This document shows positions 20,457-21,880 of a stretch of DNA of 64,000 nucleotides, in pieces; the first letter of the stretch is position 1, and each line of letters starts with the position of its first letter. Under the pieces are notes generated by a model. It saw only the letters and a program-made list of their open reading frames with translations. It did not search any database and had not been told where the DNA came from. Source of the DNA: a virus (lineage: Duplodnaviria > Heunggongvirae > Uroviricota > Caudoviricetes); the IMG/VR virus record IMGVR_UViG_2690316325_000010, positions 12,805-76,804 of that record; one strand, 5' to 3'. Position numbers and translations under genes: made by a program.

Positions 20457-20919
20457 GGGTTTTCGTCATGGTTAGCGACTTTGCGGCGGTTTAGAAACTG
20501 ACCATTAAAGTAAATGCAAACGATGATCTGATGATGGTAGCGGCCTAAGAAGCCAGACGCCACGGGGTATGAGTCGTCCCCCGTCAAAAAATCGACCGCA
20601 GAGTGTCCCCGTCTGTGTATTAGGGAACGGGGAGGCACAACAGGTAAGGGCGCTGGTGTGATTAACCAGATGAACGAGAAGGGGCCATCTGTTGGTCAGC
20701 GTCCTTTCCTGTTGCGTCTTCTTTTCAGCGTAACAGCGGTGCTTAACAGCACTTTGGGTACAGTTCCACGAATTTACGGGTATATCCCGTCATGCTGAAG
20801 GCGCTAATCACGCTGGAAGCCAGGGTTATGCATCCCCTGTTACCGAATTGCAGCCAGGGCGCGGTGCGCCGAAAAGCATACGGAGGTGGAAGCCCTCGCC
20901 GGAGACGTACCCGGCAAGT

Positions 20920-20995
20920 GATGGTGTAGCTCAGCGGTTAGAGCGGTTGACTGTTAATCAACGGGTCGATGGTTCAAATCCATCCACCATCGCCA
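20920..20995 (+). tRNA. trnA: tRNA-Asn (anticodon GTT)
   Basis: 76-nt cloverleaf folded by hand: acceptor GATGGTG/CACCATC, anticodon stem GTTGA/TCAAC with loop CTGTTAA, T-arm GATGG-TTCAAAT-CCATC, encoded 3' CCA. Confidence 0.9.
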
Positions 20996-20997
20996 AT

Positions 20998-21073
20998 GCC
21001 GGTTTAGCTCAGTTGGTAGAGCGCCTGCCTTGTAAGCAGGATGTCAGCGGTTCGAGTCCGTTAATCGGCACCA
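20998..21073 (+). tRNA. trnT: tRNA-Thr (anticodon TGT)
   Basis: 76 nt, 2 nt after tRNA-Asn: acceptor GCCGGTT/AATCGGC, anticodon stem CCTGC/GCAGG with loop CTTGTAA, T-loop TTCGAGT, encoded CCA. Confidence 0.9.
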
Positions 21074-21075
21074 GC

Positions 21076-21880
21076 ACAACAGGTAAGGGTATTTTGCGAC
21101 GTCGGAGATCGCCGAGCTTGGCAGAGGGTTCGAATCCCTACGAAGTACCCTTACCGTTGTGATGAATGCGCAGGCTGATGCGCGAAAGACATTGCAGCTA
21201 TTGCGGAAAAGAGCTGTTCGGCGGGGCAATTAAACGCCCGTGAGAGTCTGAAATAACCGCAAGCCGGAGATCAGCACCGGTCATCACAACACAACAGGTA
21301 AGGGCATTCTCCCTTATGGGGCTTGGCTTAAATGCATCGAGTGCTCTTACCGTTGTGATGAAGTGCAGCTCTTTGAAGCAACCAGAAGATAAGCATCTGG
21401 CTTCACAACATAAACCGCAGGAACGACCAATAAACGGTAGTCCGTATGGAGAACACCCCGTTGAGGAAGAGGCCTGGCCGGAACCGTAACCGGCACTACA
21501 ACGTTGAGAACACTGGCGTAACGGGGTCATATCCCAATCTACGAATAAATGTTGCGTTGCAGCGTGACAACCAGTGTTCTCAACATTGTGGTGAATGCAC
21601 AGGCTGATGTGCCGCAACTACAGTAGTGCGCGCTTTGCGGGGCTTGCTACAACCCTGTGTCGGAGTTCAGCACCGACCATCACAGTTTGATTCTCTGGCA
21701 TGAGCATAACGCTGAAATAAGTCCAGCCTGGTGCGGCCCGATCACCCGCCGTTAGCTCCACGAAACGGAGCACGTAACAGGTAAGAGCATTCTCCTGTAA
21801 CGGGTTCATATCCCAATCTACAGGTCCACCAAGAATGCTCTTTCCGTTGCGGTGAATGCGGCTAAGCGCACGCGGGGAAA
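21076..21880 (+). repeat. four structured repeat units (tRNA-like hairpin elements) downstream of tRNA-Thr
   Basis: Units near 21076-21184, 21293-21368, 21490-21615 and 21775-21875 each have a long imperfect stem (e.g. GGTAAGGGTA...TACCCTTACC) and end in GTGATGAATGCRCAGGCTGATG-like tails; unit 1 encloses a T-arm-like GGTTCGAATCC. Confidence 0.5.

Follow-up and report, generated by a model that had tools for sequence, protein, structure and literature searches.

What is encoded in the leader of the ban operon of phage P1, about 1.5 kb of DNA for which the annotation gives just a 'dicF-like region' and two ORFs of doubtful standing? Although P1 is a classic phage with a complete annotation, the array described here had gone unrecognized in it. 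The DNA analyzed was a 64,000-nucleotide stretch (the window) of a P1-like phage, in which the array region forms the leader of the C1-repressed ban operon. From 20456 to 21967 on the plus strand, five long hairpins (H) were found to alternate with tRNA-Asn, tRNA-Thr, and four S modules (Table 1). The initial annotation had placed two canonical tRNAs within an array of tRNA-like structured repeats, and this overall picture was confirmed: ARAGORN and Rfam both find the two tRNA genes, and the repeats are real. The hairpins, counted then among at least four units, number five, with H0 lying upstream of the tRNAs, and the region extends to 21967 rather than 21880. The interpretation of the units as structured RNAs, and of the ORFs across them as spurious, also stood, whereas the suggestion of decayed tRNA genes and the unit boundaries did not.

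Layout of the ban Leader and Its Coding Potential

The array transcript is presumed to start in the Pban region, whose promoters and operator were located by homology to P1 record AF234172 (features at positions 1473–1518 of locus L001, where position 1501 corresponds to window position 20250). A consensus scan of 20100–23500 found no other sigma-70-like site. The stem at 20428–20447 and the U-run behind it were scored by a scan as a terminator-like site between Pban and the array, so that read-through or antitermination must be assumed. The 'dicF-like region' ending at this site was found by eye to be homologous to the stretch upstream of dicF in prophage Qin of E. coli K-12. The DicF model (RF00039) gave no match in it at E ≤ 10, as against 76.7 bits for K-12 dicF itself, and in P1 the homology is limited to the flanking sequence. 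The Qin dicBF operon resembles P1 in the homologous upstream stretch (20318–20455) and in an S4-type module, which lies between dicF and dicB. It differs in that this is its one S module, neither H hairpins nor tRNAs being present in the stretch examined; P1, for its part, is devoid of DicF as judged by the Rfam model.

The P1 reference record assigns the region to two proteins, Plp and Upl. Their genes are annotated on the minus strand, and minus-strand ORFs of 139 and 109 aa are present in the window. These ORFs, however, run antisense to the ban operon, belong to no Pfam family, and shift in length with module indels among close relatives; plp moreover overlaps tRNA-Thr, and the plus-strand RNA structure fully accounts for the sequence. 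A protein-coding role is hence extremely improbable, in line with the initial view of the ORFs, and removal of plp, upl, and similar 'hypothetical proteins' across modules in phage records is probably warranted.

Table 1. Features of the ban leader in window coordinates.
Feature	Position	Strand	Basis and remarks
Pban promoters P1ban/P2ban and C1 operator Oban	20222–20267	+	Homology to annotated P1 record AF234172
'dicF-like region'	20318–20455	+	P1 annotation; 3′ end is a hairpin with U-run, stem 20428–20447
M module, tmRNA-like coding piece	20456–20636	+	ARAGORN 80% threshold, Rfam tmRNA_permuted, conservation
M-module motif GUUUUCGUC	20459–20467	+	
M-module tag frame ANDDLMMVAA and stop	20516–20548	+	Resume-codon context present
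M-module pseudoknot-like element	about 20561–20597	+	By eye
M-module terminal hairpin	20605–20634	+	
H0, long hairpin in ACAACAGGTAAGGG...CCTTTCCTGTTG frame	20637–20716	+	-47.8 kcal/mol, z = -5.8; exact 14-mer copy
T-like linker hairpin GCCGGAGACGTACCCGGC	20898–20915	+	4 nt upstream of tRNA-Asn; repeat family D10; read from sequence
tRNA-Asn (GUU)	20920–20995	+	ARAGORN; Rfam tRNA 74.5 bits
tRNA-Thr (UGU)	20998–21073	+	ARAGORN; Rfam tRNA 72.9 bits
H1, ~23-bp stem	21076–21160	+	-42.7 kcal/mol, z = -5.9
S1, cloverleaf-shaped	21159–21287	+	Fold, covariation, pL-leader homology
H2, long hairpin, same frame as H0	21291–21356	+	-34.5 kcal/mol, z = -5.1; exact 14-mer copy
S2, short S-type, GUGAUGAAG...CCAGAAGAUAAGCAUCUGG CUUCAC	21355–21406	+	Weak fold, z = -1.45
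T-like linker hairpin GCCGGAACCGTAACCGGC	21477–21494	+	Directly upstream of H3; read from sequence
H3, long hairpin	21494–21593	+	-49.2 kcal/mol, z = -6.9; inverted repeat I1, 23 nt, 91% complementary
S3, cloverleaf-shaped (GUGGUG...CAUCAC)	21588–21683	+	Fold, covariation
Linker hairpin GCTCCACGAAACGGAGC	21755–21771	+	Upstream of H4; read from sequence
H4, long hairpin	21774–21850	+	-36.1 kcal/mol, z = -5.5
S4, STnc100-like (GCGGUG...CACCGC, 21849–21967), then U-run	21849–21980	+	Fold z = -3.45; Rfam

Long Hairpins and Their Payloads

The long stems and the conserved 5′ motif recognized initially are both genuine. All five H folds (-34 to -49 kcal/mol, z = -5.1 to -6.9) are far more stable than shuffled sequence, none of 200 shuffles being equally stable. 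The motif ACAACAGGTAAGGG occurs in three exact copies (20637, 21076, and 21291), all on the plus strand, and diverged copies open H4 (GTAACAGGTAAGAG, 21774) and H3 (ACAACGTTGAGAAC, 21498). With up to two mismatches, 0.26 occurrences are expected by chance, and none of 100 shuffles reached three. The H arms read ACAAC-A-GGUAAGRGCA and UGCYCUUWCC-GUUGU and form stems of 20–28 bp around a variable payload. Because the frame sequence itself is conserved, beyond pairing, it is not explained by a pure processing stem. The helix ends at UUG/CAG and the payload begins at a junction; covariation was not detected just inside the frame, where the six bases inside the arms pair at 2.21 of 6 positions, against 2.22 of 6 with shuffled partners. 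The payload-proximal end of the frame is C-G, A-U, G.U in 53 of 72 distinct frames, G.U being the third pair, and the next base is A in 45 of the 72, like the alanine identity set.

Several payloads look like parts of tRNAs. The tip of H1 consists of a D-arm-like hairpin, a stub, and a T arm (AGGGUUCGAAUCCCU) without an anticodon arm; the T-arm-like loop previously pointed out in unit 1 is indeed present (GGTTCGAATCC, 21127–21137). This payload recurs in other frames (L185 and L222), and H1 was not called a tRNA by the Rfam tRNA model or by default ARAGORN. The tip of H3 holds a CAU anticodon-arm look-alike (GGG GUCAUAU CCC, 21523–21535) together with a second small hairpin, and that of H4 a similar arm (GGG UUCAUAU CCC, 21802–21814). 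Among 25 sequences of this CAU-arm family, the covariation score was 0.407 versus 0.175 in shuffles (0/500); the loop CAUA was invariant, and the 3-bp stem GGG/CCC was changed to GGC/GCC in two sequences. The CAU arm of lambdoid relatives, CGGGCUCAUAACCC, has 14 nt in common with the E. coli initiator tRNA metZ. Such 'tRNA parts' are not general among payloads, since a T-loop-like motif was found in 7 and a CAU-arm look-alike in 3 of the 62 distinct H payloads. Two payloads that appeared hammerhead-like by eye (one in L227, the other in L223 and L249) matched no ribozyme model at E ≤ 0.01 and were rejected.

Small hairpins link the modules. The one upstream of tRNA-Asn is of the type that ends S modules, the one preceding H3 also precedes frames in phage PDP46, and a hairpin identical to that before H4 stands before a frame in the unrelated contig L268.

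Cloverleaf-Shaped S Modules

A conserved 3′ tail had been assigned to the hairpin units. The repetition is real, as the 22-nt sequence GTGRTGAATGCRCAGGCTGATG occurs exactly at 21159 and 21588 (0 expected), with weaker versions after H2 and H4; it belongs, however, to the 5′ end of an S module lying between the hairpins. The unit drawn initially was a hairpin plus the first third of the following module. In each S module, an acceptor-like stem (GUGGUG/CACCAC) is followed 2–3 nt later by a D-like hairpin, then by a variable centre at the anticodon-arm position, and finally by a T-like hairpin directly next to the 3′ strand of the stem. The loops of the D-like and T-like hairpins are joined by Watson–Crick pairs (GCUGA/UCAGC). 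S1 is thus ordered GUGAUGA, D-like hairpin GCGCA-GGCUGA-UGCGC, variable centre, T-like hairpin GCCGG-AGAUCAGCA-CCGG, and UCAUCAC. Its identity with lambdoid pL leaders is ~98%, and the closing stem differs by a compensatory change. Modules of the short S2 type were also seen in PDP46 (by eye), L012, and L241.

All four helices are supported by covariation. Across 31 distinct S-core sequences, pairing is kept in 99.2% of cells, a percentage that is partly built in since the alignment was filtered for most stem pairs, the loop-loop helix being unfiltered; slid registers gave 25–51% pairing. Compensatory changes were found in 9 of 21 pairs, against 3.2 in shuffles (0/500), and the loop-loop helix carries a double compensatory change from GCUGA/UCAGC to GUCGA/UCGAC in L187. 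The comparison across homologues that had been proposed as a check therefore revealed conserved secondary structure, in the S core as in the CAU-arm family, and together with the folds it bears out the proposal of small structured RNAs with tRNA-like features.

By shape criteria, as distinct from family membership, the S core has a tRNA-like fold. As in canonical tRNA, the helices follow the order acceptor, D, centre, and T, the T-like stem abuts the 3′ acceptor strand, the D and T loops interact, and the same array slots are occupied. Unlike canonical tRNA, S modules have no anticodon arm and no encoded CCA, their T-like loops are of 9 nt instead of 7, canonical D and T loop sequences are absent from most members, and the elbow is replaced by a 5–6-bp Watson–Crick loop-loop helix. 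Genuine tRNA-type D and T loops occur in L146-type S modules; these and P1 S3 are called tRNA by ARAGORN under relaxed settings only. With an 80% threshold and introns allowed, a tRNA-like gene was called at 21588–21684, with boundaries within 1 nt of S3. The rescans suggested initially yielded tRNA-like calls by ARAGORN at S3 and in the H1 area only at the 80% threshold, with or without an 'intron', and the Rfam tRNA model (RF00005) matched no H or S module even at E ≤ 10. Engineered 'tRNA scaffolds' hold foreign RNA in place of the anticodon arm, and the variable insert of the S modules is located at the corresponding position.

A tmRNA-like Coding Piece

The M module carries a tag frame with resume-codon context. 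ARAGORN called a tmRNA over it at the 80% threshold and none in this region at default, and the Rfam model tmRNA_permuted (RF04321) aligned with the resume region and tag end at 24.1 bits, below its threshold of 47. Shared by the module with phage-encoded permuted (two-piece) tmRNA are the resume context UAAAUGCAAACGAUGA, an AND...AA tag of 10 codons, the placement of the stop codon in a small hairpin (in its loop, by eye), a pseudoknot-like element after the stop, and upstream a motif like GUUUCGAC, which reads GUUUUCGUC in the M module. Unlike permuted tmRNA, the P1-type module showed no alanine-accepting domain (a G3:U70 acceptor with T arm and CCA). It is flanked by H frames or a terminator-like hairpin, whereas canonical permuted tmRNA loci are without H or S motifs.

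In the many phages that keep the M module, the frame has a fixed length of 10 codons and closes with AA or VA, and changes fall mostly at third positions; for the 17 distinct codings of the TLD-less type, codon differences numbered 445 at third versus 187 at second positions. Twenty-four related loci are called permuted tmRNA at the default ARAGORN threshold, and a called acceptor domain is absent in 90 of 107 distinct loci with the P1-type tag. A sub-threshold tRNA-like domain proposed by ARAGORN for the P1 tmRNA (20325–20348 with 20806–20846) was rejected as a probably spurious pairing, because its 5′ half is missing in D6-type relatives that keep the tag module.

It is conceivable, though doubtful, that the modules form a non-canonical system for trans-translation and tRNA mimicry, made of several pieces and present in P1 as in many other phages. 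In such a system, a tag specific to the phage (ANDDLMMVAA and relatives) would come from the M module and the tRNA-like body from the S modules, and the H hairpins would correspond to permuted acceptor helices with the loop excised as in two-piece tmRNA. These pieces would re-programme ribosome rescue in lytic growth, or decoy host defences that cleave or modify tRNA. VapC-type toxins cut initiator tRNA, and the initiator-tRNA anticodon arm on H3, H4, and the lambdoid relatives could decoy such toxins; the CAU arms of H3 and H4 are candidates for RNA mimicry of initiator tRNA. That the H and S frames share an origin with permuted tmRNA genes is only a guess.

Distribution, Strand Bias, and Module Turnover

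The chain of RNA modules recurs, almost unannotated, in hundreds of unrelated phages and prophages. The H, S, and M motifs were each found in at least 120 viral contigs, and indeed in more, the family extending over temperate and virulent phages of many proteobacterial hosts. The S core was detected in 68 bacterial species, with a matching 3′ half 69–210 nt away at 66 of 69 sites, and array parts occur in 1362 of 5426 complete E. coli genomes. A large modular structured-RNA family is hence present in a quarter of the complete genomes of this species, K-12 included, of which only the STnc100/PasD corner has been described. Rfam searches of the window and 30+ related loci, at gathering and permissive thresholds, returned only tRNAs, sub-threshold STnc100, and weak permuted-tmRNA matches, and no occurrence of the module core sequences was found in the literature text searched. 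Modules also stand between ordinary genes in other phages, for example after the major capsid gene in PDP46 and after the lysis genes in SopranoGao.

This recurrence in unrelated phages and prophages argues that the chain is a functional RNA system, not a residue of decayed tRNAs. Neutral leftovers of a formerly larger tRNA cluster, the origin considered initially, would account for the good T arm and D-arm-like hairpin of H1, for the weak calls of relaxed ARAGORN over H1 and S3, and for the extra real tRNAs at module positions in relatives, where Tyr, Arg, and Ser(UGA) tRNAs join or replace modules. They would not account for compensatory pairs, invariant loops, and near-identical termini across dozens of bacterial genera and unrelated phages, nor for the strand and orientation biases given below, and most payloads have no tRNA-like motif. 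Decay of tRNA genes is therefore very improbable.

Among the 76 distinct H hairpins compared, the plus-strand RNA was the more stable fold in 92%, the mean advantage over the complement being 4.9 kcal/mol. Modules and flanking long ORFs were co-oriented at 81 versus 39 loci and at 97 versus 25 loci, and tRNAs within 3 kb of modules, present at just ~15% of loci, lay on the same strand in 88 cases and on the opposite strand in 2. As to turnover, whole modules are gained, lost, and swapped exactly at the arms among P1 relatives, and a deletion in L079 fuses H3 to H4 within the shared CAU motif. The arms are nearly identical across unrelated phage families and distant bacteria. These features of arms and turnover would suit DNA-level elements, that is, recombination linkers or mobile-cassette ends that shuffle tRNA and sRNA genes, with RNA folds being incidental. 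Such elements are nevertheless improbable in view of the strand bias and the near-absolute co-orientation with tRNAs, and compensatory changes in short hairpins and in the loop-loop pairing would be meaningless in duplex DNA; an unsystematic look noticed no target-site duplications, transposase genes, or recombinase genes beside the arrays. Recombination probably does occur at the arms, but it would result from the repeats being there and would not be their purpose. Integron attC sites, CRISPR-like repeats, and MITEs were also set aside, as strand bias and loop-loop covariation favour RNA; the arm ends do not fit the attC R-box consensus.

Proposed Processing and Candidate Functions of the Array

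From the modelled structures and by analogy with known processing, we consider it fairly probable that the region is a co-transcribed stable-RNA array in the ban leader, which would be diced by RNase III and RNase P. One long untranslated plus-strand precursor, presumably reaching from Pban through the whole array, would contain the real tRNAs in alternation with independently folding H, S, and M modules, joined by conserved complementary linker arms. Host stable-RNA machinery would dice this precursor: to judge from shape and precedent, RNase III would cut the long H stems, and the 5′ G of every tRNA and S module would be the RNase P site, tRNAs and S modules being placed alike, in slot and register, behind an H stem. 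In L139 and L205, a tRNA was seen by eye to begin after an H stem in the S-module register. Processing of non-tRNA phage RNAs by RNase P has been reported for phi80 M3 RNA and the P1/P7 C4 RNA precursor. Nucleases would trim the 3′ ends of the released RNAs, so that the products would be 2–3 tRNAs and about ten stable small RNAs. The conserved frames would serve as processing and stability scaffolds, with function carried by the variable payloads; STnc100/PasD-like members may, by analogy, act through Hfq-dependent base pairing, and payloads made of tRNA parts may act by mimicry or as decoys. The array thus offers concrete predictions for processing sites, and a natural counterpart of engineered tRNA scaffolds.

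The same features can be read as purely cis-acting punctuation, which would mature and stabilise the neighbouring tRNAs and the downstream ban mRNA and perhaps help RNA polymerase to traverse 1.7 kb of untranslated RNA; fragments released from it would be functionless. The long near-perfect stems have an RNase III-type shape, tRNAs and S modules share slot and register, modules lie between ordinary genes in PDP46 and SopranoGao, and the consensus scan found no internal promoter-like site, all of which agrees with punctuation. So does the presence of UGCUCUUU or UGCUCUUA in the 3′ arms of H2, H4, and most frames, as UGCUCUUU is the core of rrn boxA and the layout is reminiscent of rrn processing stems. 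The Nus-factor boxA, however, is a single-stranded GCUCUUUAACAA-type element that binds NusB/NusE, whereas the boxA-like sequence agrees with this consensus for 8 nt and then departs from it, and all predicted folds place it in the paired strands of a stable duplex. The CAU-arm sequence, moreover, is conserved while the supporting stems covary, which suggests that the tip itself has a function; near-invariance of the S termini extends across bacterial classes, beyond the apparent need of host RNases; and the relatives STnc100 and PasD have been reported to be sRNAs of prophages, with Hfq association and many RNA partners in the case of PasD. Punctuation alone is therefore unlikely, though a role of the modules as processing signals, proposed initially, is a live partial explanation. 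A put-type antiterminator RNA as in HK022 was considered because the lambdoid copies are located in pL leaders. The put RNA is a two-stem, V-shaped molecule of roughly 70 nt starting at or near the promoter; it was rejected, as the architecture differs and an H hairpin comes after, not before, the local terminator.

T4 species 1 and 2 RNAs, GOLLD, ROOL, and YrlA are structured RNAs beside or nested with phage tRNA genes, and in YrlA, as in H1, a long stem is coupled to a tRNA-like domain. The Rfam models of these families matched no H, S, or M module; the sole match of YrlA (RF02553), 25.6 bits versus a threshold of 69, spanned the two real tRNAs. S4 is the only module that resembles a described RNA family. 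It aligned with positions 31–147 of the 206 in the STnc100 model (RF02076) at 37.8 bits (E = 3.3e-6), short of the gathering threshold of 47, whereas S1–S3 and all H hairpins gave no match to this model. STnc100 shares with S4 a closing stem, a 5′ GGUGAAUGC with a small hairpin, and a 3′ hairpin CCGGGAGGCACCCGG. Prophages of Salmonella and pathogenic E. coli encode STnc100 and PasD, sRNAs whose families were recently recognized as related; Hfq RIL-seq revealed the Pas sRNAs, and northern blots validated them. In the sections searched, the publications on STnc100 and PasD describe stand-alone base-pairing sRNAs, and mention no cloverleaf, loop-loop pairing, hairpin-frame arrays, or presence in P1. 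S4 and the STnc100/PasD RNAs alike are prophage RNAs from untranslated operon leaders, and the array as a whole hints that phage tRNA clusters, prophage sRNAs, and permuted tmRNAs may be linked in evolution.

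The module array of the ban leader

The array of RNA modules on the + strand of the ban leader proved to be real and richer than the initial annotation had described. It contains long hairpins (H0–H4), cloverleaf-shaped modules between them (S1–S4), and a tmRNA-like piece (M), all conserved, strand-specific RNA structures within one untranslated unit, where they occupy the same slots as tRNAs. The array is not made of decayed tRNA genes; that reading, one of those first offered for its repeats, is contradicted by this conservation and by compensatory changes in the stems. It belongs to a family of modular phage RNAs, tRNA-like and tmRNA-like, that is widespread and essentially unannotated.

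Features of the ban leader
Feature	Position	Strand	Basis or remark
P1ban, P2ban promoters (C1-controlled) and operator Oban	20222-20267	+	placed via annotated P1 record, end of dmt
M module (tmRNA-like)	20456-20636	+	tag frame 20516-20548; adjoins the array's hairpins upstream
H0	20637-20716	+	fold
H1	21076-21160	+	fold
S1	21159-21287	+	fold
H2	21291-21356	+	fold
S2 (short)	21355-21406	+	fold
H3	21494-21593	+	fold
S3	21588-21683	+	fold
H4	21774-21850	+	fold
S4	21849-21967	+	fold

The source of the window is a P1-like phage-plasmid, of which the stretch 20250-22010 shares 99.9% identity with phage vB_EcoM-813R1, 99.5% with RCS47, and 99% with reference P1 across 88% of the query length. In the P1 record, Oban is followed by a "dicF-like region", tRNA-Asn, tRNA-Thr, the minus-strand ORFs plp and upl, tciABC, a CAU tRNA, and ban. 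Instead of tciA-tciC, the window encodes a 78-aa membrane ORF and a 275-aa SPFH/Band 7 lipoprotein (22002-23046) with the modules upstream; the array therefore sits in a leader of ~1.7 kb holding no plausible + strand ORF. The ORFs across the array, already suspected to be spurious, include plp and upl, whose protein annotations are very probably wrong. The name plp is applied to different things depending on the record. Elsewhere in the window, a hok/sok-type module is indicated by a sok antitoxin RNA (3670-3844, Rfam 89.7 bits).

Both tRNA-Asn and tRNA-Thr were confirmed by ARAGORN and Rfam. The repeated 5' motif of the initial annotation corresponds to a 14-mer, ACAACAGGTAAGGG, in 3 exact copies (0.26 expected allowing ≤2 mismatches), its T-arm-like loop to GGTTCGAATCC at 21127-21137, and its long stems to five hairpins with fold z-scores of −5.1 to −6.9. 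The 22-nt "tail" also occurs in 2 exact copies against 0 expected, but it is the start of an S module rather than the end of a hairpin. Within the window, these repeated motifs were found only in the array stretch and only on the + strand. Folding with covariation, one of the checks proposed at the outset, showed that both the S helices and the stem of a CAU arm in the H hairpins covary, and 0 of 500 shuffles reached either score.

S modules

The S modules start with GUGRUGA or GCGGUGA, to which their 3' ends, UCAYCAC or CACCGC, are complementary. A small D-like hairpin lies 2–3 nt past the 5' strand and a second, T-like one is flush with the 3' strand; the centre between them differs among modules in both length and sequence. 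In order and spacing, these helices match those of a tRNA (acceptor, D, T). Of the tRNA and Rfam scans suggested initially, relaxed ARAGORN called 21588-21684, ≤1 nt off the S3 boundaries, but the Rfam tRNA model matched no S or H module; an S module is therefore tRNA-shaped, not a tRNA. In other phages, the D and T loops of some S modules are of genuine tRNA type, and ARAGORN calls these modules as tRNA only with introns allowed.

When the conserved S cores were aligned (31 distinct), 99.2% of cells were paired and 9 of 21 pairs exhibited compensatory changes (3.2 in shuffles, 0/500 reaching this score), where the acceptor, D, and T stems had partly been selected for pairing during assembly and the loop–loop helix had not. 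Pairing fell to 25–51% with a slid register. This loop–loop helix is formed by the two small-hairpin loops, which are mutually complementary (GCUGA and UCAGC). Their longest complementary run averaged 4.0 nt over 50 distinct D-like/T-like hairpin combinations, versus 2.97 (max 3.26) for loop-shuffled controls. A double compensatory change, GUCGA/UCGAC, was observed at one locus (L187), and wobble intermediates at others. The closing stem of P1 S1 is similarly GUGAUGA/UCAUCAC versus GUGGUGA/UCACCAC in the mEp460 phage copy (~98% identity), a compensatory pair, with a G·U intermediate in a third plasmid.

S4 is the sole module resembling a described family, namely STnc100, for which its score of 37.8 bits falls short of the threshold (47). 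A relationship between the prophage sRNAs STnc100 and PasD was recognised recently, and Pas sRNAs were detected via Hfq RIL-seq; the searched sections of that work make no mention of arrays or of a cloverleaf shape. The core sequences of the modules had no match in the literature text searched. An STnc100 copy is located 75 nt downstream of stx2. Two side observations come from a Geobacteraceae MAG contig and another locus (L268, L134): the variable centre of one S module holds what by eye seems to be a complete tRNA, and in another a 7-nt loop (CUUUUAA) closed by a 5-bp stem lies at the anticodon position, forming a tRNA-Lys(UUU)-like anticodon arm.

H hairpins

Two arms that are conserved and complementary to each other, ACAAC-A-GGUAAGRGCA and UGCYCUUWCC-GUUGU, make up the H stem and form a frame around a payload. 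A frame-only search gave >120 contigs and ~100 different payload-containing sequences among the matches listed, and payloads ranged from 34 to 170 nt in 62 unique frames. The + strand RNA folded more stably than its complement in 92% of hairpins (n = 76 distinct). The H1 payload, a D-arm-like hairpin, a stub, and a T arm, recurs inside other frames elsewhere. That of H3 and H4, ACGGGNUCAUAUCCCAAUC, has a 3-bp G-C stem and a 7-nt loop with CAU at the anticodon positions. This CAU motif was found in >120 viral contigs among the matches listed, in nearly every case capping a long hairpin. Its version in lambdoid prophages, CGGGCUCAUAACCC, has 14 nt in common with the E. coli initiator tRNA metZ. 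Among 25 distinct sequences, the supporting stem scored 0.407 for covariation versus 0.175 when shuffled, loop CAUA was invariant, and the 3-bp stem became GGC/GCC in two. Only 7 of the 62 payloads contain a T-loop-like motif and 3 the CAU arm, so the frame is general and tRNA-part payloads are special cases.

The payload-proximal end of the frame reads C-G, A-U, G·U in 53 of 72 distinct frames, with A as the next base in 45; the pattern is absent from H1 and H4. Speculatively, this is the geometry expected of a permuted alanine-type acceptor helix. The 3' arms of H2 (21341-21348), H4 (21836-21843), and most frames of other loci contain UGCUCUUA or UGCUCUUU, the core of rrn/lambda boxA. A small hairpin follows 10–15 nt on, a nut-like or rrn-leader-like layout, but all predicted folds have this boxA-like stretch paired.

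The tmRNA-like M module

Relaxed ARAGORN flagged the frame GCA AAC GAT GAT CTG ATG ATG GTA GCG GCC TAA, which encodes ANDDLMMVAA behind a tmRNA resume context; the E. coli SsrA tag is ANDENYALAA. The Rfam permuted-tmRNA model gave 24.1 bits, with the resume region and tag end aligned. The module (~190 nt) recurs in many unrelated phages, always with 10 tag codons ending in AA or VA (e.g., ANDDVVLMAA, ANDDLMLMAA, ANDEQFLAVA). The type without a tRNA-like domain has 17 distinct codings that differ mostly at third codon positions. By eye, the stop codon lies in a small hairpin loop followed by a pseudoknot-like element. ARAGORN at default found a complete permuted tmRNA (G3:U70 acceptor, T arm, CCA) at 24 of 129 resume-and-tag loci, all carrying GUUUCGAC without H or S motifs. 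In contrast, P1-type modules carry GUUUUCGUC, have no called acceptor domain, and are surrounded by H or S frames; no alanine-accepting domain is recognisable at the window copy. M is therefore a derived relative of the permuted-tmRNA coding piece of phages.

Distribution, turnover, and proposed processing

Modules occur in P1-like plasmids, lambdoid pL leaders, Stx phages, and unrelated virulent phages (Taipeivirus Magnus, Lastavirus SopranoGao, Jilinvirus ep3, PDP46), in the last group in intergenic DNA or beneath tiny annotated ORFs. They share the orientation of flanking long ORFs at 81 loci versus 39, and 97 versus 25, and are co-oriented with nearby tRNAs in 88 cases and opposed in 2. 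The 24-nt S 5' core was found in 68 species-representative genomes, including Enterobacterales, Aeromonas, betaproteobacteria (Janthinobacterium, Massilia, Undibacterium), Marinobacterium, Martelella, and several MAGs; a matching T-like hairpin and 3' strand lay 69–210 nt downstream at 66 of 69 sites. Parts of the P1 array matched 1362 of 5426 complete E. coli genomes. K-12 prophage Qin has an S4-type module between dicF and dicB, and its stretch upstream of dicF is homologous to the P1 "dicF-like region". This S4/STnc100-type module (L127 845-1000; MG1655 about 1649444-1649599) is unannotated, lies directly 3' of the dicF terminator, and has a 14-bp closing stem, UGAAUUUUGUGAUG/CAUCACAAAAUUCA.

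P1 relatives vary by whole modules. Reference P1 lacks S1, and the ~12% of the query left unmatched suggests that it also lacks H2. Between these same arms, others hold new H and S modules or a tRNA (Tyr, Arg, or Ser(UGA)), and at two loci (L139, L205) a real tRNA begins, by eye, in the exact register of the S start after the H stem. In an IMG/VR contig (L079, around 3817), a natural deletion fuses the H3 5' half to the H4 3' half exactly inside the shared CAU-arm motif; recombination between modules therefore occurs.

The whole array may be a single transcript from Pban. RNase III would cleave it within the H stems, and RNase P would process each tRNA and S module at its 5' G. These cuts would release stable small RNAs whose function is carried by the payloads. 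A consensus scan of the leader found 0 internal promoter-like sites versus 3.8 expected. Its sole + strand terminator-like site (20428-20447) precedes the array, which is a weak point for the one-transcript model. Since H frames are conserved in sequence, a processing role alone is insufficient as an explanation.

The mEp460 pL leader has the order S module, DicF-like terminator, H hairpin, and first gene. In this leader (L002 2640-2800) and many lambdoid contigs, the terminator hairpin (UUUGGCGGUACCAG...) directly precedes the H hairpin, and the terminator's U-run forms part of that hairpin's 5' arm. These phages have no annotated gene at the expected lambda N position, and the two minus-strand "hypothetical proteins" annotated there are probably spurious. 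An E. coli chromosomal segment labelled "CRISPR" in RefSeq (NZ_LR025101.1 3872432-3872465) matches window 21937-21970, the S4 T-like hairpin region, at 100%, and is probably a mis-call on repeated hairpins. The surroundings of the ban leader look like a hot spot for accessory or counter-defence functions. The P1-like E. coli plasmid pEC361_3 (L005 2708-3086) carries a gene for the Thoeris anti-defence protein Tad2 after the CAU tRNA, and its array contains tRNA-Arg, tRNA-Tyr, tRNA-Thr, and tRNA-Ser.
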